A program made the translations under genes and the position numbers. From a phage, in NCBI GenBank assembly GCA_022979955.1, contig GCA_022979955.1_3642.1: a stretch of DNA of 64,000 nucleotides. One strand, written 5' to 3'. Under the pieces are notes generated by a model that made no database searches, was not told where the DNA came from, and saw only the letters and a list, made by a program, of their open reading frames with translations. Below are positions 6,871-61,707 of the stretch, piece by piece. Position 1 is the stretch's first letter. Each line of letters starts with the position of its first letter.

Positions 6871-6959
6871 ATAAAGTGTTGCAATAATCTAAAAACCTGC
6901 TATATTAAAACTCAAGGGGCAAGACGTTTGCCCCCACACAAAACAAAGAGGAAAACATC

Positions 6960-11887: not shown

Positions 11888-12160
11888 ATGTCAAGCTGGA
11901 TTAATCAAGAAGTCGAATCACGTTTTAATGCTATTTGGGATCTCATCGAAAAAGAGGACGGAACATCAAGCCCCTATCTCAACAATTTGGAATTCCATTT
12001 TGTGGAAGCGATGAACGCAGAACATGATCACGAAGGTGGCGCGGATGAGTTCGCTAAAGGTTATGGCTTTAACAATGCCAACGAAATGATCGAGGCGGTC
12101 GTACTCCAAGCTGAGGAAGATTATCAATTAAAAACGCTTGAATTCTGCCGCCATAAGTAA
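11888..12160 (+). CDS. hypothetical acidic protein
   Basis: ORF track; promoter TTGACA..TAACAT, leader hairpin, GGAGAGAGG SD. Confidence 0.5.
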   Translation: MSSWINQEVESRFNAIWDLIEKEDGTSSPYLNNLEFHFVEAMNAEHDHEGGADEFAKGYGFNNANEMIEAVVLQAEEDYQLKTLEFCRHK

Positions 12161-12220
12161 TAAGATAATGACACGGGCCAAAAGGCCCACTAATCAGAAC
12201 CGCACAAAGAGGTAAACATC

Positions 12221-12484
12221 ATGAAACGTCTTGATCAGCTCAAATTAGTTCAATATATGGCTTATCGTGTTCTTGAAGTCCAGAAAGGTAGCAAAAAAGA
12301 GGTTTGCGAGAAAGCTTATAAGATCTTCACTCGCAAAAAAGATGACTGGATGCTACGCCAGACTAAAAAGGCTGACATCTTGGGGTACCTGGAAGAAGAG
12401 ATCCGCCTTGAAGAGCAAGAAGAGATCCGCCGTAGTGAGGCAGATTATCAGGCAGCTTGGGAAAACTGGATGAGCAACAAATAA
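12221..12484 (+). CDS. hypothetical protein
   Basis: ORF track; AAAGAGG SD. Confidence 0.5.
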   Translation: MKRLDQLKLVQYMAYRVLEVQKGSKKEVCEKAYKIFTRKKDDWMLRQTKKADILGYLEEEIRLEEQEEIRRSEADYQAAWENWMSNK

Positions 12485-12550
12485 TACAACAAGTTACATG
12501 GTCAGGGGCAATAAAGCCCCTTGATCACATAAAAATTATGCTATCCCTGG

Positions 12551-12579
12551 TTGACAGGGATCGGCAGTTTTGCTATATT
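12551..12579 (+). promoter_or_regulatory. sigma70-like promoter TTGACA-N17-TATATT
   Basis: hexamers read directly upstream of gene 12628. Confidence 0.5.
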
Positions 12580-12627
12580 CTTTTTGAAGGGAAGTTGTAA
12601 GAAAATTAACTAAGAGGTAAAAACACC

Positions 12628-13047
12628 ATGAACATTAAATCTAATAATCCGGCATATAGCTTTGATAACGCTTTTTGTCACGGTCCGGCGGCGAAAGGAT
12701 TCGAAATCGATGGTAAACTAATTATTGTCAATGTTGACGGGGAAGAGGTTGCAGTATATCCGGTGGCAGACGTAAAAAGCCGTTTACAATGCCGCATGGA
12801 TGTTACCGCCTATCAGCTTGATCCGGTCCGCATAGTTGCCCTGGTCCTGGAAGAAGAAATTAAAGCCATGCACCATAGCAACAGATTTATTGGTGACGCG
12901 CAGGATAATATGAAAGTATGCCGCCATAAAGTTAATGAAGTGCTTAAAGAGTACGGCTATAGAGATCTTATGATCAAACGTGAGGAAAAATTCCGCTACC
13001 GTAACGACCTGGCAAATCGGATTTTTGAAATATACGAATCATTATAA
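12628..13047 (+). CDS. hypothetical protein
   Basis: ORF track 139 aa; AAGAGGTAAAAACACC-ATG. Confidence 0.55.
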   Translation: MNIKSNNPAYSFDNAFCHGPAAKGFEIDGKLIIVNVDGEEVAVYPVADVKSRLQCRMDVTAYQLDPVRIVALVLEEEIKAMHHSNRFIGDAQDNMKVCRHKVNEVLKEYGYRDLMIKREEKFRYRNDLANRIFEIYESL

Positions 13048-13065
13048 TTTTTTAACTGAATTATC

Positions 13066-13092
13066 AAGGGGCTTAGGCCCCTTTCTTTTTGT
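13066..13092 (+). terminator. rho-independent terminator ending the + strand early block
   Basis: AAGGGGC-TTAG-GCCCCTT hairpin followed by TCTTTTTG. Confidence 0.55.
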
Positions 13093-13695
13093 CTGCTCTT
13101 CTCCTACCATAAACGGCCCTACCTGGCAAGTGGAATAATTGACTAGCCATCAATCCCACATACTGTACAAATATACATGGAAAATAACTATTGCATAATT
13201 TTTCATTGTGTGGTAGCAAGTCCATTTTTACCCGTTTTCTCTCCCAAAAGTGCACGTAATGCCGCTATTGCACAAATTTTAACCTGATGCACATCTCTAA
13301 TATCTTGTCAACAACTAAAAATCTTTATAAGTCATACACTTACACAGCATCGAAAGCGTGTTCTACGCGAAAAATCGAGTATAACTATAGCCGCCAGATC
13401 TCAGAATTCACGTACGCACGCCATTCTATAGCCTGCAAAGTATTTATTCCAACCACAGAATAACGGAATAGTCAATACCTGCATAAAATAATTATTCGTG
13501 TAAACTGCATAACATAAATCAGCTCAGGTGTCAACATTTTTCGTAAACAGTTCGAAATTGTCACGGTAAGTTATTATACACAGAGAAATCTTTAGTCGTC
13601 TAATGGTTACTATACATTACTAATCTGACTGGAATCATTAGATGACTAATAGAAAGATAAGAAATAATTAACAGTCTAATTATATTAACGATAAC

Positions 13696-13970
13696 AATAA
13701 CAGCGGTTAAAGTCATGGCGCGACGGAGTCGCGACATAATAACACCGAGTAACCCTCACCCCCGTGAGCGTTGCGAATGTTATTATGCCATGACTAAATC
13801 ATTTCAACACGTAACTATAGGCATAACAACATTCCCTCGGTGTTATTATGTCGCTAGTTATTATATAACTGTTAACAATAACGCCTCGGGAATAGTTCTG
13901 CCTGCACGATGTTTATAACAGCAAGTTATGATCAACATTTCACAGATTATAATAACAGCGGTTAAAGTCA
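13696..13970. repeat. 20-bp direct repeat AATAACAGCGGTTAAAGTCA (13696..13715 and 13951..13970)
   Basis: two identical copies read directly. Confidence 0.6.
13731..13854. repeat. 19-bp perfect inverted repeat GCGACATAATAACACCGAG / CTCGGTGTTATTATGTCGC separated by 86 bp
   Basis: arms at 13731..13749 and 13836..13854 are exact reverse complements. Confidence 0.6.
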
Positions 13971-14597
13971 GGCGTAGAAACAGTGGAAGTGTAAACAGTC
14001 AATCATGTAAATGATAAGTATGTGAACAGTTATCCATGTAAACTATTAGACATGTAAACAATCAGGTGTGCAAAAGTGTCAAGGGTGTCACCATTGTGTC
14101 TAAAGTGTCGTATGTCATCAGTATGTCAGACAAGTTTTTCTCCTCTTTGTCAAGTGCTGCATGAAAAATTTACAATCTTGTATGGTAGCATTTTTGCGGT
14201 CCTGTTTACATTCAGAGATGTATGTATAATCCTTGTTGTGTGGGCGTTTAGACGTCTAGACGGTCAGAAGTCTGCAGGTCAATATCTAATCTATTGGCTG
14301 CTAACTATATCCCACACAAATAGTAAGAAATATAATTGTTATATGCGTAAACAGTAACCCATGTTATCAATCCCTGTATGGATCGCCAGTGGTGCGCATA
14401 ATGGGTATTATGTTAAATTGCCCGTAATGATAATGGTTCTCACAATGATATGTATTCTCATTCCCCCACACAAAATAGATTGCAAATGTTGTGCCACTAT
14501 GTGAACGGCCTCACCTATTAATTTGCCTCACTGCCTCGATATTTGAGAATTATTATAAGAATGAGAAGTATTCCCATTTCGTCCGCCTGGCAGCGCT

Positions 14598-14900
14598 CCT
14601 GTAGGTCCTGCAAGGACTCTAGCTGAAAGCTAGACCCTTCGGGCCTCCCTGTAGGTCAGGTCAAAATCGTGGTAGAATTGGGCCTATTCAGATATTTCTG
14701 GCTGGCTCTTCAGGTCTGTGTGGGAAAAGCCAACCTCTCCGGCGGGGCAGGGGGAGGTAAATTAAAAAATTTACGGGGTATATGAAGCGCTCTTCAGGTA
14801 AGGCATGTACTATGGGATGAAACCCTCTTCAGGCAATGATATTTGTGGGTGTGATATTTGCTGGAAAGCCAGATATGACGGGACTCCCGGCGGGGCAGGG
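14598..14900. repeat. cluster of short direct repeats: CCTGTAGGTC x2, CTCTTCAGG x3 (4th at 15238), CCGGCGGGGCAGGG x2
   Basis: motifs read at 14598, 14647; 14706, 14790, 14825; 14739, 14887. Confidence 0.55.
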
Positions 14901-15596
14901 GTAGTACAGACAGGGAAAATATGAGAATGTAGTTGGGGAAATTGATCAGACAGGTAGAGTATGGAATATGTTACAAGTATGTTAAATATGGAGGTTGAAT
15001 ATCTGTAGGATTTGTGTGTAAAATCAAAGACTTAAGGGGTGTTGTGGTATTTTCTATAAATAATTCAAGTTTAATAGGCAATATTTGTCTCTATCCGCTT
15101 TGTGTGGTAAACAGATTCAGATTAGATTGGTTTACAAGTGTATACATAATATACAAATTAAAGATACAAGAAACCCCCCTCCCCCTTCGGCTACCATTCA
15201 CCTTTTCCTCTGACTGGTACTTAAACACTTATTCAGACTCTTCAGGTTATCACCCATATATCATATGGCAGTGACTGGTGTCCTCCGGCCCCTCTTTCGT
15301 CACCCGTCCGCTTCGCCATGCTAATGCCATAGCTAATGGTTCGGTTGTTCACCCTGTTCACTCAGGTGTATCTCTATACCCCTTCAAACCGAAGAGAACA
15401 GAAAACCCGAATTACTCGGTAAAAGAAAAGAGAAGAACTTAATTTTATCAGGATAGGCAAGAATGTCAAGGCATGACTGCTCACTAAACAAGCAAACAGT
15501 CATGTGTGGGAGGTAAGTGATTGTGGTGGTAGGAAATTTAGTTGAAAGATGTGTTATAGGTGCTTCCAGCACTTTAGCCTGGCAGCTAATTGTGTG

Positions 15597-15812
15597 TCAG
15601 TCCAGCGGTTCATCCTCTACTTCACTGAAATCAATGTTCATGGTCTCTTCCCAACCATCGATCTCAGCACAAGAGTGGAGTTCTTTAGGGTTTACTCCCA
15701 AAGCCTCAGCAACAGAGTCTATATTTAACACCTCTGGCAGGTATGTTTCATCGAATTCAAGGTAAATCAGGCCACGAGTGTTGTCAGCTCCACCAAATAT
15801 TTCTATCTTCAT
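15597..15812 (-). CDS. hypothetical small acidic protein (MKIEI... N-terminus)
   Basis: ORF track; last gene of - strand block. Confidence 0.45.
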   Translation of the reverse strand: MKIEIFGGADNTRGLIYLEFDETYLPEVLNIDSVAEALGVNPKELHSCAEIDGWEETMNIDFSEVEDEPLD

Positions 15813-15933
15813 GAAATCTCCTCTGGAAATGAGAGTGTGAACAGGGTTTTATACGTTCCAATGCACTGGAATTATACACGTTTGCCTCTTCAGGCCATGC
15901 TTTAGCATGAGGAGCCTGTGTGGGCTCGGTGCT

Positions 15934-16347
15934 TCATAGTCTACCACCTCTGAACTCTTCGTGCTCAGGCATAATAGAGAACCAGATATCTACGATGTCT
16001 TCCCACGTTAGGTCATCAGCCTCAGGATCTGTCTGGGACGAAGATGGAGAATCTTCAGAATCGAAGTTTTCCTCTTGCACTGGCTCAGTCAAGGGACATA
16101 TAGTCACTCCTTTGGATGTCTCTTCAGATGCATGTGTGTTTATCATGTTCCACCCGTGAGTATTCCGGCAACAGCCACTATGGACGTAATGATCATCAGG
16201 ATCACCACCAAAACCTCTGACAATGTTTTCATTGTGTATCCCATATTCTCCAAACGATGTGTGGATACTATCACTGGAGCGGCAATGTGTCAACAGAAAC
16301 GCCGCGAGGGTTTGGTTAAAATCCGAGCGTATGGTGATTTGGGTCAA
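15934..16347 (-). CDS. hypothetical acidic protein
   Basis: ORF track 137 aa. Confidence 0.4.
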   Translation of the reverse strand: MTQITIRSDFNQTLAAFLLTHCRSSDSIHTSFGEYGIHNENIVRGFGGDPDDHYVHSGCCRNTHGWNMINTHASEETSKGVTICPLTEPVQEENFDSEDSPSSSQTDPEADDLTWEDIVDIWFSIMPEHEEFRGGRL

Positions 16348-16451
16348 AACGGACGTGCGTTCTCGCTACGCTCGAAAGAGAGACTTGTTTGTAGAAAGCT
16401 CTTAAACGCTCTGTAACGAGATTATCTGTCCAAGGTATGCAATCGTGCACC

Positions 16452-16482
16452 AGATAAAGAAAAGGACGCCACAGAGCGTCCT
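16452..16482 (-). terminator. rho-independent terminator (- strand)
   Basis: GGACGC-CACAGA-GCGTCC hairpin followed by U-rich run on - strand. Confidence 0.5.
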
Positions 16483-16506
16483 AGGTGTCTTAAATTTGAT
16501 ATTTTG

Positions 16507-16818
16507 CTATACCCATGAGGGCTTATCAAGGTTGGAGTAGCTGAAAGGTGTCAAAAGGTGACTGTCAAAATCCCTCAAACTATCCAAATCTTTTTCCTCG
16601 TCCTGACACCATCTGTGCCTACATTTATTGTTGTAGTGCATAGAATGCATAGCGTTCTGCAACTTAACAGGTACAAGTGATTCAGGAGTAGATAGTATTG
16701 TTGGGTATGCCAGAATCACCTCAAACAGTGGAAACACATCGAAACTAAAGTCTACCTCTGCAGAGGTTGATGGCATATAGGAGTATTTAGCCGCCTTTGT
16801 AGACATAATCCACCTCAC
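16507..16818 (-). CDS. hypothetical protein
   Basis: ORF track. Confidence 0.4.
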   Translation of the reverse strand: MRWIMSTKAAKYSYMPSTSAEVDFSFDVFPLFEVILAYPTILSTPESLVPVKLQNAMHSMHYNNKCRHRWCQDEEKDLDSLRDFDSHLLTPFSYSNLDKPSWV

Positions 16819-17141
16819 ACAGGTTTGATAATACCTTTACCGAATAATTCTTCGTATCTAATCTTATCCGGATCCCACTCTTGGATAATTTCGAAGACAA
16901 TATCCAACCCAGGGATAATCACTTCTCCAGTGTCAAGTTTGGCAAGAACAAAACCAGAAGGCTGAATGGTTTCCCAGTTGCGCCGATTGGAATAGAAGAC
17001 CTCGAAAATATCGCCGACCTTTATCTGTTGATCAAGATGTTCAAGATTCTCTTTCATATAGACGCAGCGGATTTTTCGTGCAGGCCATAGACCACCTGCA
17101 TCACGTTCATTTAGCTCTTTTACAGTAATCGGTATACCCAT
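16815..17141 (-). CDS. hypothetical protein
   Basis: ORF track; 4-nt overlap with downstream gene. Confidence 0.5.
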   Translation of the reverse strand: MGIPITVKELNERDAGGLWPARKIRCVYMKENLEHLDQQIKVGDIFEVFYSNRRNWETIQPSGFVLAKLDTGEVIIPGLDIVFEIIQEWDPDKIRYEELFGKGIIKPV

Positions 17142-17196: not shown

Positions 17197-17502
17197 TTAT
17201 TCTACAGAGCGTTTGAACAGAATGTCTGCCTCAGACATGTGCTCAACCTCTTCTTCGATTTTAGCGCGACGTTTTTCAGCCTCATAGCGAATATCGAACT
17301 CGGTAGCCACCAGAGATTTGATGAATTTAGGAGAATACAGGTGATCCTGCTTCTCAACGAGAATGATATCCTTAATGGCATCTTTCAGATCTTTAATCTG
17401 AAGTTGGAGTTCTACCAGTTCTTCGATTGTTTTGCGAAGGCGATCACGCTCTGCAGTGTCAGAAGGAAGAGAGGTGAACAGTTCAACTTTAGATTTAGCC
17501 AT
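17197..17502 (-). CDS. hypothetical coiled-coil protein
   Basis: ORF track; charged heptad-like sequence. Confidence 0.5.
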   Translation of the reverse strand: MAKSKVELFTSLPSDTAERDRLRKTIEELVELQLQIKDLKDAIKDIILVEKQDHLYSPKFIKSLVATEFDIRYEAEKRRAKIEEEVEHMSEADILFKRSVE

Positions 17503-57361: not shown

Positions 57362-57436
57362 GCCCTGTTAGCTTAGTGGATAAAGCAGCGGCCTTCTAAG
57401 CCGTTGACACTGGTTCGAGTCCAGTACGGGGTGCCA
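57362..57436 (+). tRNA. tRNA-Arg (anticodon UCU)
   Basis: hand-folded cloverleaf: acceptor GCCCTGT/ACGGGGT, anticodon loop CTTCTAA, T-loop TTCGAGT, 3' CCA encoded. Confidence 0.7.
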
Positions 57437-57440
57437 AATT

Positions 57441-57527
57441 GGGGAGTTATCCCGTAGAGGTAGCGGTGTAGACTGTAAATCTATTGTCATTGCGACTCGG
57501 GTGGTTCGACTCCACCACTCCCCACCA
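57441..57527 (+). tRNA. tRNA-Tyr (anticodon GUA), type II long variable arm
   Basis: acceptor GGGGAGT/ACTCCCC, anticodon loop CTGTAAA, T-arm GGTGG-TTCGACT-CCACC, CCA encoded. Confidence 0.7.
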
Positions 57528-57641
57528 AATTTATATTTTTAGATGCGTAAATAATACAGATAATGGCATTGATATTTATCGTCGTTTATACTAGTCACTA
57601 ACTGCTCGAAAATCAGTGTCATTATCAGTATAATTTATAAA

Positions 57642-57732
57642 GGAGGGTAGGGAGCAATGGTGCTCAAGCGGTCTTGAAAACCGTCCCATTGAGGATGACT
57701 CGATGATGGTTCGATTCCATTACTCTCCGCCA
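57642..57732 (+). tRNA. tRNA-Ser (anticodon UGA), type II
   Basis: acceptor GGAGGGT/ACTCTCC, anticodon loop CTTGAAA, long variable arm, T-loop TTCGATT, CCA encoded. Confidence 0.65.
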
Positions 57733-57830
57733 CATTGTTGACCTTGTAATTAAGCGAAAGCCGGAAGCAGAACCGGATTATCAAATGTTACAGTCGTCAT
57801 CGCCGACTAGCAACATGGTCAACATACTGA

Positions 57831-57927
57831 GCTAGGTAAGCCCTTTGGCAAGGGCGAGGATTTTTAATCCTGAAAATAGACGAGGTAGTCGTTGAATACA
57901 TAGGTGGTTCGATTCCACCGCCTAGCA
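57831..57927 (+). tRNA. atypical tRNA-like gene (anticodon loop TTTTTAA, nominal Lys-UUU) with about 30-nt extra arm
   Basis: acceptor GCTAGGT/GCCTAGC, D-arm GCCC-TTTGGCAA-GGGC, T-arm GGTGG-TTCGATT-CCACC; 4-bp anticodon stem; no encoded CCA. Confidence 0.35.
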
Positions 57928-57933
57928 CCTTTT

Positions 57934-58009
57934 GCTGATGTAGCACAATTGGCAGTGCAATTGATTTGTAATCAATAGGTTGCAGGTTCAAGTCCTGCCA
58001 TCAGCACCA
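57934..58009 (+). tRNA. tRNA-Thr (anticodon UGU)
   Basis: acceptor GCTGATG/CATCAGC, anticodon stem ATTGA/TCAAT with loop TTTGTAA, T-arm GCAGG-TTCAAGT-CCTGC, CCA encoded. Confidence 0.75.
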
Positions 58010-58010
58010 T

Positions 58011-58085
58011 GGCCCTGTAGCTGGAAGGTTCAAGCAAGCGACTCATAATCGCCAGATGGTGGTTCAATTCCACCCAGGGCCACCA
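58011..58085 (+). tRNA. tRNA with CAU anticodon (Met, or Ile if lysidine-modified)
   Basis: acceptor GGCCCTG/CAGGGCC, anticodon loop CTCATAA, T-arm GGTGG-TTCAATT-CCACC, CCA encoded. Confidence 0.65.
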
Positions 58086-58096
58086 AATTATAAATA

Positions 58097-58163
58097 CTCC
58101 GCGTAGCTCAGCTTGGTAGAGCGCCTGATTTGGGATCAGGAGGTCGAGTGTTCGAATCACTCC
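58097..58163 (+). tRNA. tRNA-Pro (anticodon UGG)
   Basis: acceptor CTCCGCG/CGTGGAG, anticodon stem CCTGA/TCAGG with loop TTTGGGA, T-loop TTCGAAT, CCA encoded. Confidence 0.7.
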
Positions 58164-58219
58164 GTGGAGACCACCTTTAGTTATACTTTAAACATATACA
58201 AACGAAAGGAACCTTTAAA

Positions 58220-58993: not shown

Positions 58994-59277
58994 GAGTTGC
59001 TACACTGTTTATTGCGTGCTTGTTATTATGTGGGTGTGCAACCAGTGTTGAGAAAGAATACAAGATTGACCCTCCAGATGTAGGAAGGTTGATTGTTAAA
59101 CCCCCAGAAGGTGCCATGAAACCACCTGCTAAAGCTATGCCTTTGAAGAAAGGTGCGCCAGATGCAGTGAACTCTGGCATTATGAGGGATAATAATCTGT
59201 CTTGTAGCAATGATAGAGCTAAATTGATCATTTTGCAAGACTATATTAGAACACTGTTTCCAAAGGAGAGAGGTTAA
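58990..59277 (+). CDS. putative o-spanin (Rz1-like lipoprotein)
   Basis: signal peptide with lipobox LLCGC; Pro-rich mature region; ATGA overlap with upstream gene. Confidence 0.5.
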   Translation: MRVATLFIACLLLCGCATSVEKEYKIDPPDVGRLIVKPPEGAMKPPAKAMPLKKGAPDAVNSGIMRDNNLSCSNDRAKLIILQDYIRTLFPKERG

Positions 59278-59705
59278 TGTCTAAGATTTACGGACCGTGT
59301 TCTGAAAAGCAGAAGATGATCCTAGAAAACGATGCAGATATTTTGGTAATCGGCGGTGCCGCAGGGTCTGGCAAGTCGTTCCTCTTGCAGTTGATGCCAC
59401 TTAAAATTATTGATGACCCCCACAGCTCTGTGGTTATGTTCCGAAGAACAACCCCACAGTTGGAAGGTGAGGGTGGACTATGGCCTAAAGCAGTAGCTAT
59501 TTATAGTGATCTGCCTGAAAACATTAAGCCAAAGTTCAGAGAGAAGGATCATAAGTTCATTTTTCCACGGTTTGATCCGAACACTGGCAAGTGGGATAGG
59601 AGCAAAAAGGGAGCTGTTGTAAAATACTGCCACATGGAGTATGTACAAGATAAGCTTAACCATCAAGGGCTTGAGTACACCATGGTTTGCTTCGATGAGG
59701 GTTAA
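59277..59705 (+). CDS. terL: terminase large subunit, N-terminal exon (ATPase Walker A/B)
   Basis: Walker A VIGGAAGSGKS, Walker B-like MVCFDEG immediately before stop; C-terminal part resumes at about 60619. Confidence 0.6.
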   Translation: MSKIYGPCSEKQKMILENDADILVIGGAAGSGKSFLLQLMPLKIIDDPHSSVVMFRRTTPQLEGEGGLWPKAVAIYSDLPENIKPKFREKDHKFIFPRFDPNTGKWDRSKKGAVVKYCHMEYVQDKLNHQGLEYTMVCFDEG

Positions 59706-60640
59706 TTTGTAGCTCTCGTAAAACCTCCCTAATTGCGGGGAAATCTTTATTATTGACACCACCAACCTGTTATGGTAACATAATAGAGGCTTCGAAGAGA
59801 GATCGAAGGTATGGTAATAGTGTGTTAATTTAGATAATCCGCAGCGAAGCATCCGAGAGGATGAACGTTCAACGACTAGTCGAAAGACGTAGAATCAAGC
59901 GATTCGAAACGGGAGGGTGAATGTGTAATACTAAAAAATGTATGGATTGTCAAAGAGTTCTACCTATTGATGATTTCTTTTTATCATCTAAGAGCAAGGA
60001 TGGATACTCAGGTACATGCAAGGAATGCTATATGTACTACAGGAAGGGTGGATCTCGTAAAAACAAAAATATGGTTAAGAGAGATGACGCAGCATTGTTT
60101 ATTCAAGACTTGCTGAAGAAAGGTGAACTTTTTGAATGCAAATCTTGTCATGAAAGTATGCTCGCTGATAGTTTTTACACAAAACGTGACTATGGTAAAG
60201 TATACCTGGTTACGAACAGGTGTAAGATGTGTGAAAAGTTTTATCAGATTGAGAAAAAATTTCACATAACAAAAGATGAATACTATCGTCTACTCTCAGA
60301 TCAAGATCATAAGTGTGCCATTTGTAGAATATCTCTTGATGAGTATAGGACGCAAGGGTACAGAGATTTCTTTTGTGTTGATCATGACCATAAAACTGGC
60401 GCTGTAAGAGGGTTGCTTTGTGATAAATGCAACAGAGCTTTAGGTTTCTTCCAAGAGGATGAGGAAACTATTCTTAGAGCGGCAGAGTATTTGCACATTC
60501 ATAAGATATAGTCTGGTCTGCATGGAGACATGCAGCTGCCTGAAAATGGCGGGGCAAGACTAGCGACCTTGCCCGAACATAAACGACACAATTCGAATGG
60601 GAGCAGATAGACTACCTGATGTCTCGTTTGCGATCTCAGT
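59706..60640 (+). mobile_element. putative group I intron in terL carrying an HNH homing endonuclease gene
   Basis: terL frame interrupted right after Walker B; structured-looking flanks; free-standing HNH ORF with own SD; boundaries approximate. Confidence 0.5.
59921..60511 (+). CDS. HNH homing endonuclease (endonuclease VII-type motif)
   Basis: CVDHDHKTGAVRGLLCDKCNRALG motif plus N-terminal Cys-rich region; GGGAGGGTGA SD. Confidence 0.7.
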   Translation: MCNTKKCMDCQRVLPIDDFFLSSKSKDGYSGTCKECYMYYRKGGSRKNKNMVKRDDAALFIQDLLKKGELFECKSCHESMLADSFYTKRDYGKVYLVTNRCKMCEKFYQIEKKFHITKDEYYRLLSDQDHKCAICRISLDEYRTQGYRDFFCVDHDHKTGAVRGLLCDKCNRALGFFQEDEETILRAAEYLHIHKI

Positions 60641-61707
60641 CAAAGTATCCATCAAGGATGGTTATCAGCTGTAACCCTGATTCAGAACACATGCTTGCCA
60701 AACTGGTTAGATGGTGGTTGGACGATGAAGGGTATCCAGATCCGGAGAAATGTGGTAAGAAAAGATATTTTATCCGACGCGACGGTGAATTTATTTGGGG
60801 AGACTCTAAGGAAGAGTTGATAGAGAAATACACCACGGTTAACGGACTGGGTGTAGAGATCAAGCCAAGACCGTTGTCATTCTCGTTCATAGGCGCAACA
60901 ATATTTGATAATCCTGTCTGTTTGAGAGACAACCCAGAATACCTTGCTTTCCTCGAAGGTCTGCCAGAGCTGGAAAAAGCTCAGCTTCTCCATGGTAACT
61001 GGTTTGCAAAGCCTGAGGGTGCAAACTATTTTCAAAGATCTTTCCTTCGTGATGCCGATAGAGTACCCCTTGGATCAGTATCTTGCAGGGCATGGGATAA
61101 GGCAGGAACCGAGAGAACTTCTGGCAATAAATTTCCTGACTTTACTGCCAGTATTAAGGTAAGTAAAGATAGCGACGGCTTTTATTACCTGTCAGGGGAT
61201 TATTGTCCTGAAAACGTGGATGACGGGAGGTATTCCACAGGTCTGGAAGGCAAGTTCTGTAAAAAGGCTGGTGAACGAGATGTGATCATCAGGAAACAGG
61301 CGCAGTTTGATGGTGATGATTGCATAATCGTATTCTCTGTGGACCCTGGTCAGGCAGGTAAGAGTGAGTTCTTAACCTCATCCAGATCCTTGCTCGCCGA
61401 AGGGTTCAGGGTTGAAGAAGACCCAATGCCTTCCAACAAATCTAAACTGACAAGGTTCTCACCTTTTGCCAATCTTGCACAACAAGGGATGGTGAGGATT
61501 GTAAAATCCAGTTTCCATCCTGATACTCTGGAAGCATTTCTGACTGAACTTGAAAAATTCAACGGGGAAAGATCAACATTTAACAGAAAAGACGACTGGG
61601 CAGACTGTGTAGCTTCTGCGATTAATTTCCTGGAGAAAGAGGAGGTAGCACTTCCTTGTGTGATTCCATCAATCTCATCACCTTCTATGTTCAAGCGTTT
61701 TATCTAA
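60619..61707 (+). CDS. terL: terminase large subunit, C-terminal exon (nuclease domain); true exon start unresolved
   Basis: continues terminase after the intron (ISCNPD segment near start); size and position before portal. Confidence 0.55.
   Translation: MSRLRSQSKYPSRMVISCNPDSEHMLAKLVRWWLDDEGYPDPEKCGKKRYFIRRDGEFIWGDSKEELIEKYTTVNGLGVEIKPRPLSFSFIGATIFDNPVCLRDNPEYLAFLEGLPELEKAQLLHGNWFAKPEGANYFQRSFLRDADRVPLGSVSCRAWDKAGTERTSGNKFPDFTASIKVSKDSDGFYYLSGDYCPENVDDGRYSTGLEGKFCKKAGERDVIIRKQAQFDGDDCIIVFSVDPGQAGKSEFLTSSRSLLAEGFRVEEDPMPSNKSKLTRFSPFANLAQQGMVRIVKSSFHPDTLEAFLTELEKFNGERSTFNRKDDWADCVASAINFLEKEEVALPCVIPSISSPSMFKRFI

Follow-up and report, generated by a model that had tools for sequence, protein, structure and literature searches.

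A gene-free region between convergent gene blocks of an rV5-like phage as the probable T7-type genome terminus, with conserved sequence signals on both sides

A 2,549-bp region without protein-coding genes (positions 13048–15596) was analysed in a 64,000-nucleotide stretch of phage DNA (contig GCA_022979955.1_3642.1 of GenBank assembly GCA_022979955.1), hereafter called the window. This region is very probably the concatemer junction, or genome terminus, of a T7-type Vequintavirus, together with its packaging signals. The virion DNA of close relatives starts at the equivalent of position 14129 and ends at that of 14587, so that a circularised assembly or a replicative concatemer is expected to carry a single copy of the direct terminal repeat (DTR), as the window does. 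An earlier note on the window had described a gene-free region of about 2.5 kb at the convergence of two transcription blocks and had listed a genome terminus or packaging signal, a second origin, nick sites and non-coding RNAs as its possible contents. The gene-free region was found as described, and the suggestion of a terminus was borne out by the mapping of the DTR and by the ends of nine database records.

Positions 13000–15700 matched 122 phage records with 91–97% identity, essentially all of them rV5-like coliphages, and on these matches the source phage is a Vequintavirus. The gap lies between the stops of two ORFs (open reading frames), one of 139 amino acids on the plus strand (stop at 13047) and one of 71 amino acids on the minus strand (stop at 15597). 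ORFs to the left of the gap were on the plus strand and those to the right on the minus strand, forming convergent blocks. The GC (guanine–cytosine) skew switched sign at the gap and the cumulative GC skew reached its maximum there. The two flanking genes are genes 163 and 164 of rV5. In the rV5 paper, a grey "non-coding" box without ORFs stands between these genes, and bidirectional terminators are said to have been expected between them and not found there.

Within the gap, 18 ORFs of 36–93 amino acids were present. Most were intact in merely one to four of 11 related genomes, and the few intact ones fell in stretches that were nearly invariant regardless of coding. The gap ORFs gave no match in a PHROGs search, whereas both flanking genes matched PHROGs families, and a Pfam search of the gap ORFs returned only matches below the curated cut-offs. 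Single-base indels were present even in the most conserved part of the gap (15150–15596). The gap was likewise empty in independent gene calls for four other assemblies, and the mini-ORFs annotated there by depositors disagreed between records. No relative carried ordinary genes at this locus that were merely frameshifted in the window. With neither an ORF conserved among the relatives nor a protein-family match, the gap was shown to be truly without protein genes, and mini-ORF calls in it should be dropped.

The physical ends were located through the relatives. Phage Gotham has a 459-bp terminal repeat with twofold coverage and a fixed packaging start (PMC7471380). The two copies annotated in its record (repeat_region 1–459 and 136567–137025) both mapped onto 14129–14587, and the Gotham repeat as a query matched a single place in the window. 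Four records ended exactly at the equivalent of 14129 (Pr121LW, by its start, ECP2303, EdH4 and HdK5) and four exactly at that of 14587 (bov10K2, bov22_2, bov25_3 and YN3). Together with Gotham, nine independently deposited records therefore shared identical end coordinates at one or the other position. Terminal repeats of 458 bp have been reported for EdH4 and HdK5 (PMC6563267). In EdH4, HdK5 and YN3, the repeat was matched at two places, at the record ends. The same sequence thus stands at both ends in the close relatives Gotham, EdH4, HdK5 and YN3, and for the present phage this holds by homology. Placement of its DTR at 14129–14587 is supported by these matches. The DTR is then central in the gap, flanked by 1,081 bp (left) and 1,009 bp (right) of non-coding DNA. 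Assembly contigs were checked for stops at the cut sites; a single short one, with its end at about 14734, was uninformative. In record ON286975.1 (phage I29), the 459-bp repeat query matched as two pieces spanning 1,052 bp (104224–105275), and this assembly may keep two tandem copies of the terminal repeat.

A gene-free gap of 1.6–2.5 kb between convergent blocks was a feature of five genera, being found also in KPP-1 (Mydovirus), PVP-SE1 and 4MG (Seunavirus) and Av-05 (Avunavirus), with a comparable gap in Erwinia phage pEa_SNUABM_56 (Henunavirus). Apart from specific conserved elements, the DNA was barely alignable between Vequintavirus and the other genera. For KPP-1, a repeat of 514 bp with fixed ends, as in Gotham, has been determined with PhageTerm and classed as T7-type (PMC9862379); the gap around it is gene-poor, 1.8 kb long and bounded by convergent blocks. 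The right boundary read GATATTT-N36-GTCCGyC/T (the slash marks the cut), with a start-to-start spacing of exactly 43 nt in all six genomes, and the left boundary read TGyyA/rACA, followed in most genera by TGTCAAG and AAATTTACAA. Used to set the boundaries, these motifs gave precisely the 514-bp repeat published for KPP-1 (PMC9862379), and in the other genera they predicted repeats of 453–516 bp. Since the motifs coincide with experimentally determined ends in two genera, we take them to be the cut sites. A scan of IMG/VR with the right-end motif gave nine loci, mostly the same isolates.

Two elements inside the DTR were also shared between genera (Table 1). The left-end block at 14147–14176 was well kept in Vequintavirus, Mydovirus and Seunavirus and partial in Henunavirus, and was not clear in Avunavirus. 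It looks promoter-like, but with a −10 element of TACAAA in other genera it was rejected as a conserved promoter and is more likely a protein-binding site. Nowhere in the region was conservation higher than in a block of about 30 nt (14389–14420), which occurred once in the window and was covered by no ORF common to the genera.

Table 1. Features of the gene-free region and its borders (window coordinates; a dot marks features without strand assignment).
Feature	Position	Strand	Remarks
Putative Rho-independent terminator of the left gene block	13066..13083	+	GC-rich 7-bp stem and then a T run, just 3' of the 139-amino-acid ORF
Left-flank non-coding DNA	13093..13699	.	83–96% identity per 50-bp window to 10 other Vequintavirus; no conserved ORF
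Inverted-repeat module	13690..13970	.	Direct repeats bracketing perfect inverted-repeat arms; ATAATAACA iteron in 5 copies
GTAAAC/GTGAAC array	13986..14065 (repeats 13990–14065)	+	5 copies, period ~15 nt
rTGTC(A) array	14075..14128	+	6 copies, period ~10 nt; ends at the predicted left cut, ...TGTCA/GACAAG
Predicted direct terminal repeat	14129..14587 (459 bp)	.	Predicted cut sites 14128/14129 and 14587/14588, from homology to the Gotham repeat and from record ends
Left-end block TTGTCAAG...AAATTTACAA	14147..14176	+	18 nt inside the DTR
Most conserved block of the region, GGTGCGyATAAyGkGTATTATGTTAAAT	14389..14420	.	Nearly invariant in six genomes of five genera
Right-end motif, GATATTT-N36-GTCCGCC, then cut, then T	14538..14587	.	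Fixed spacing across genera
Indel hot spot (50 nt)	14600..14649	.	Just outside the right cut; insert bordered by CTCCTGTAGGTC repeats; three alleles among 11 genomes
CTCTTCAGG repeats	14706, 14790, 14825, 15238 (14706..15246); fifth at 15886	+	
Two G-rich hairpin or G4-like elements with CCGGCGGGGCAGGG	14733–14757 and 14884–14905 (14733..14905)	.	
Paired ATGATATTT...GTGATATTT motif	14836–14859		Also in KPP-1
Near-invariant non-coding block	15150..15596	.	96–100% identity across the genus per 50-bp window; single-base indels
Predicted sigma-70 promoter, TTGACA-16-TAAAAT, with upstream TG	15442..15469	-	Aimed at the DTR; 11 of 12 consensus positions

The repeats that the earlier note had listed (a 19-bp inverted pair, a direct pair, a GTGTC cluster and a second cluster) were all recovered. 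The left flank ended in an AT-rich tract (13600–13699, 24% GC) immediately before the inverted-repeat module, and the most variable stretch within the genus followed at 13750–14128 (27–66% per 50-bp window, with many indels). In the module, the arms of the perfect 19-bp inverted repeat lay at 13731–13749 and 13836–13854, and the direct repeat at 13690–13715 and 13945–13970 (26 nt, 92%, 20 of them exact). Of 16 genomes from five genera, 15 had a perfect inverted repeat of 18–21 bp with a spacer of 86–188 nt. Its arms occurred in nine sequence variants among the lineages, and each pair was perfectly complementary. In an alignment of the arms, 99.4% of the cells were Watson–Crick pairs (a percentage inflated by choosing the arms as the best inverted repeat of each genome), no pair was G–T, and 15 of 18 pairs had changed on both sides, a count that this choice does not inflate. 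None of 500 shuffles was as good, and sliding the partner arm reduced pairing to 28–54%. Without G–T pairs, the pattern is more in keeping with pairing at the DNA level, or with copying from arm to arm, than with an RNA helix.

The common Vequintavirus version of the module was present in 118 records. Neither a search of 50,697 phage records nor four additional assemblies yielded a complete copy of the window's version. Scanning IMG/VR with an inverted-repeat arm gave 55 loci, mostly chance matches, of which only four Mydovirus- or Seunavirus-like contigs were relevant. Phage FV3 (NC_019517) was without the whole module, with 252 nt between anchors that enclose 464–605 nt in ten other genomes. 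Its break falls at the direct repeat GCAAACGAATGGCATGGC, which flanks the module in other genomes, and the module was apparently lost by recombination between the flanking direct repeats.

Between the module and the DTR, both arrays were retained in relatives and differed in copy number, clearly so for the GTAAAC/GTGAAC array. The rTGTC array was present in all 11 genomes, its final unit abutting the left DTR boundary; in the window it consisted of four GTGTC and two ATGTC units (14077–14127). Enrichment differed between the repeat motifs. CTCTTCAGG was enriched, with eight copies in the window, all on the plus strand, against 0.54 expected and five of them within 14706–15894, as was CCGGCGGGGCAGGG, with two occurrences against 0.07 expected. 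CATGTAAA and AGTGTC showed no window-wide enrichment, although their local clustering is real. As genome-wide motifs, CATGTAAA, AGTGTC and TGTCAAG were rejected because they were not enriched.

On the right of the DTR, alignment of the flanks across genera (250–670 bp long in the other genera) brought only short motifs into register. CTTCAG occurred in 17 copies in the right flanks of five of the six genomes, all on the plus strand, against roughly 0.7 expected, and never in the left flanks or terminal repeats of these six genomes. Elements of the form CCyCTCC...GGrGGGG, homologous to the G-rich hairpins, were widely present in relatives across genera. Read on the minus strand, the first of these hairpins (14733–14757) has a U-rich tail behind it and could be a terminator of leftward transcripts. 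The predicted promoter at 15469–15442 was invariant in 11 genomes, with a hairpin plus T run downstream at 15419–15407. By reading of the sequences, KPP-1, PVP-SE1 and 4MG had an equivalent TTGAC(C/G)-17-TAyTnT at the same place and in the same orientation. CTCTTCAGG was considered as a promoter element and rejected, its spacing to −10-like hexamers being inconsistent and three distant copies lying inside genes. In the plus-strand block, a GC hairpin followed by CCCACACAA was noted at 6933 and 11856, just upstream of ribosome-binding sites, and TGTGTGGG, which is complementary to CCCACACAA, turned up again at 14717, 15503 and 15917 in the right flank.

We hypothesize that the terminase would recognise and cut the two conserved boundaries, TGyyA/rACA on the left and GTCCGyC/T on the right. 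It may be guided by the repeats outside them (rTGTC and GTAAAC on the left, CTTCAG(G) on the right), as their position, orientation and conservation suggest. Because each pair of cuts must yield two complete repeats, the DTR must be re-synthesised. The long inverted repeat, 275–398 bp to the left of the DTR, is a speculative candidate for a DNA hairpin or cruciform acting in this step. A role in a replication origin, shared with the AT-rich tract and iterons next to it, is just as conceivable. The promoter at 15469–15442 would send host RNA polymerase toward the junction. The more specific proposal, that the inverted repeat forms a hairpin or cruciform which regenerates the DTR in these large myoviruses while the arrays and CTTCAG repeats serve as terminase landing sites, we regard as a long shot. 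If true, it would amount to a subfamily-wide, sequence-defined system for one step of T7-type packaging, a step that a 2026 review still calls poorly understood (PMC13595956).

Several points weigh against the region being the terminus with its packaging signals. The ends of this phage itself are placed by homology, the repeat being 90–97% identical per 50-bp window to that of 10 relatives. The inverted-repeat module is absent from FV3 and so is not strictly essential, unless the FV3 assembly collapsed, and the selection of the arms described above flatters their pairing. Moreover, known T7-type packaging signals make do with less than the well-conserved DNA found here, which extends for about 1 kb on either side. 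Something further, for example an origin or RNAs, is probably also contained in the region.

An origin of replication, in or as the left flank, is possible and compatible with a terminus, and we hold this view only tentatively. An initiator would bind the iterons and inverted repeats beside an AT-rich tract that unwinds. Clustered iterons do lie beside such a tract, the 24% GC stretch standing directly before the module, and they are lineage-specific and in both orientations (ATAATAACA in five copies here, AAGGCAACTAT in four copies in the common type). The rV5 authors were unable to place the origin. The cumulative GC skew also peaks here, but the skew follows the direction of transcription and is hence uninformative. 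No gene next to the region was identified as an initiator, and FV3 is without the module; perfect complementarity of the arms at variable inner positions is unlike the tolerance of protein half-sites.

Somewhat more doubtful, and likewise compatible with a terminus, are one or more non-coding RNAs transcribed leftward across the right flank from the promoter at 15469–15442 and ending after ~30 nt at the hairpin at 15419–15407 or after ~700 nt at the G-rich hairpin near 14735. The extended −10 promoter, which is close to consensus, does not vary in the genus and has counterparts in the three phages named above, is consistent with such transcripts, as are the terminator-like elements downstream of it. 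The adjoining block at 15150–15596 is 96–100% conserved and has single-base indels, which indicates that it is not coding. The neighbouring genes are equally conserved, however, so the invariance may be regional, and the other genera, with their short right flanks, lack most of this block. The earlier note had also thought of non-coding RNAs. A conserved promoter does aim into the region, but Rfam and folding statistics gave them no support: an Rfam search of 12000–17000 gave no match even at E ≤ 1, and folding of both strands of 14588–14950 and 15150–15436 gave z-scores of −1.2, −0.1, +0.8 and −1.0, none significant against shuffled controls. No Vequintavirus transcriptome turned up in the literature searched. 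Decayed or mis-called protein genes, or a functionless spacer, are very improbable explanations of the gap. Small ORFs are annotated in some records, inconsistently between them, and a hydrophobic ORF of 47 amino acids (14361–14504) was intact in 10 of 11 genomes; the genera had no ORF in common, not even at the most conserved block, and the PHROGs and Pfam searches gave, respectively, nothing and sub-threshold matches. A neutral spacer is ruled out by conserved motifs at fixed spacing in five genera.

The locus of the present phage agrees with that of the Vequintavirus members rV5, Gotham, EdH4 and HdK5 in sequence (91–97% identity), in its convergent units and in the length and boundaries of the repeat. 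Its inverted-repeat module and arrays set it apart from its relatives, being of a version found in full in none of the 118 records with the common version. Like the T7 and T3 junctions, it has an exact short repeat with fixed ends, present in one copy per junction and needing duplication. An inverted repeat beside the DTR and transcription directed across the junction are further likenesses to T7 and T3, the former depending on where the T7 hairpin reportedly lies. Unlike T7, the phage is a myovirus of ~137 kb that uses host RNA polymerase, with a repeat three times longer, non-coding flanks of ~1 kb each, no sequence similarity, and a terminase that matches a Pfam T4-type model. For T7, a hairpin form containing the repeat is mentioned in a paper citing Chung and Hinkle 1990 (PMC4281155), and the speculative hairpin of the inverted repeat resembles this intermediate proposed in the processing of T7 concatemers. 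The left flank also resembles iteron-type origins of phages and plasmids in its AT-rich tract beside inverted repeats and short repeats in both orientations. It differs from them in that neither an initiator gene nor host-factor boxes were identified next to it, in the loss of the module from FV3, and in arrays that end exactly at the predicted terminase cut site.

A gene-free region and a terminal repeat are already known for the genus; the anatomy of signals around the DTR appears undescribed in the literature searched, where no description linked the rV5 non-coding box to the repeat or dealt with the flanking signals. For annotation, the gain is a fixed physical start and end of the genome. 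The region also offers conserved, naturally variable cis-elements beside a T7-type repeat, namely cut-site motifs, arrays and a co-varying inverted repeat. Simple genetic tests are possible, since nature has already deleted the inverted repeat in FV3 and replaced it in the present phage.

The large terminase (59277–61707) matched only the general Terminase_6N and Terminase_6C models, labelled T4-type in Pfam. The gene looks split, with 59277–59705 corresponding to positions 2–104 of Terminase_6N and 60619–61707 to positions 117–211 plus Terminase_6C, and an ORF with an endonuclease VII domain lies between the halves (59921–60511). The arrangement resembles an insertion by a homing endonuclease, or an intron; Rfam returned no intron match at the split gene.

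Among the genes near the gap, the 139-amino-acid gene on its left border (12628–13047) was present and intact in six of 11 compared genomes and is thus an accessory gene beside the terminus. A 101-amino-acid protein encoded on the minus strand at 17200–17502 was at least 99% identical in 115 records and 42–59% identical across Vequintavirinae genera; it had no Pfam match and is named "transcriptional regulator" in some records. In the whole window, only tRNAs reached the gathering threshold of Rfam 15. ARAGORN called seven tRNAs at 57362–58173, of which Rfam confirmed only five; a 99-nt call with a 4-base anticodon (57831–57929) and a tRNA-Ser (57642–57732) were below the Rfam gathering score. 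Lastly, 19 records of the series MG0656xx, named "Campylobacter phage" and several of them unannotated fragments, were ~92–97% identical to this coliphage region and look mislabelled, or like contaminating rV5-like coliphages.

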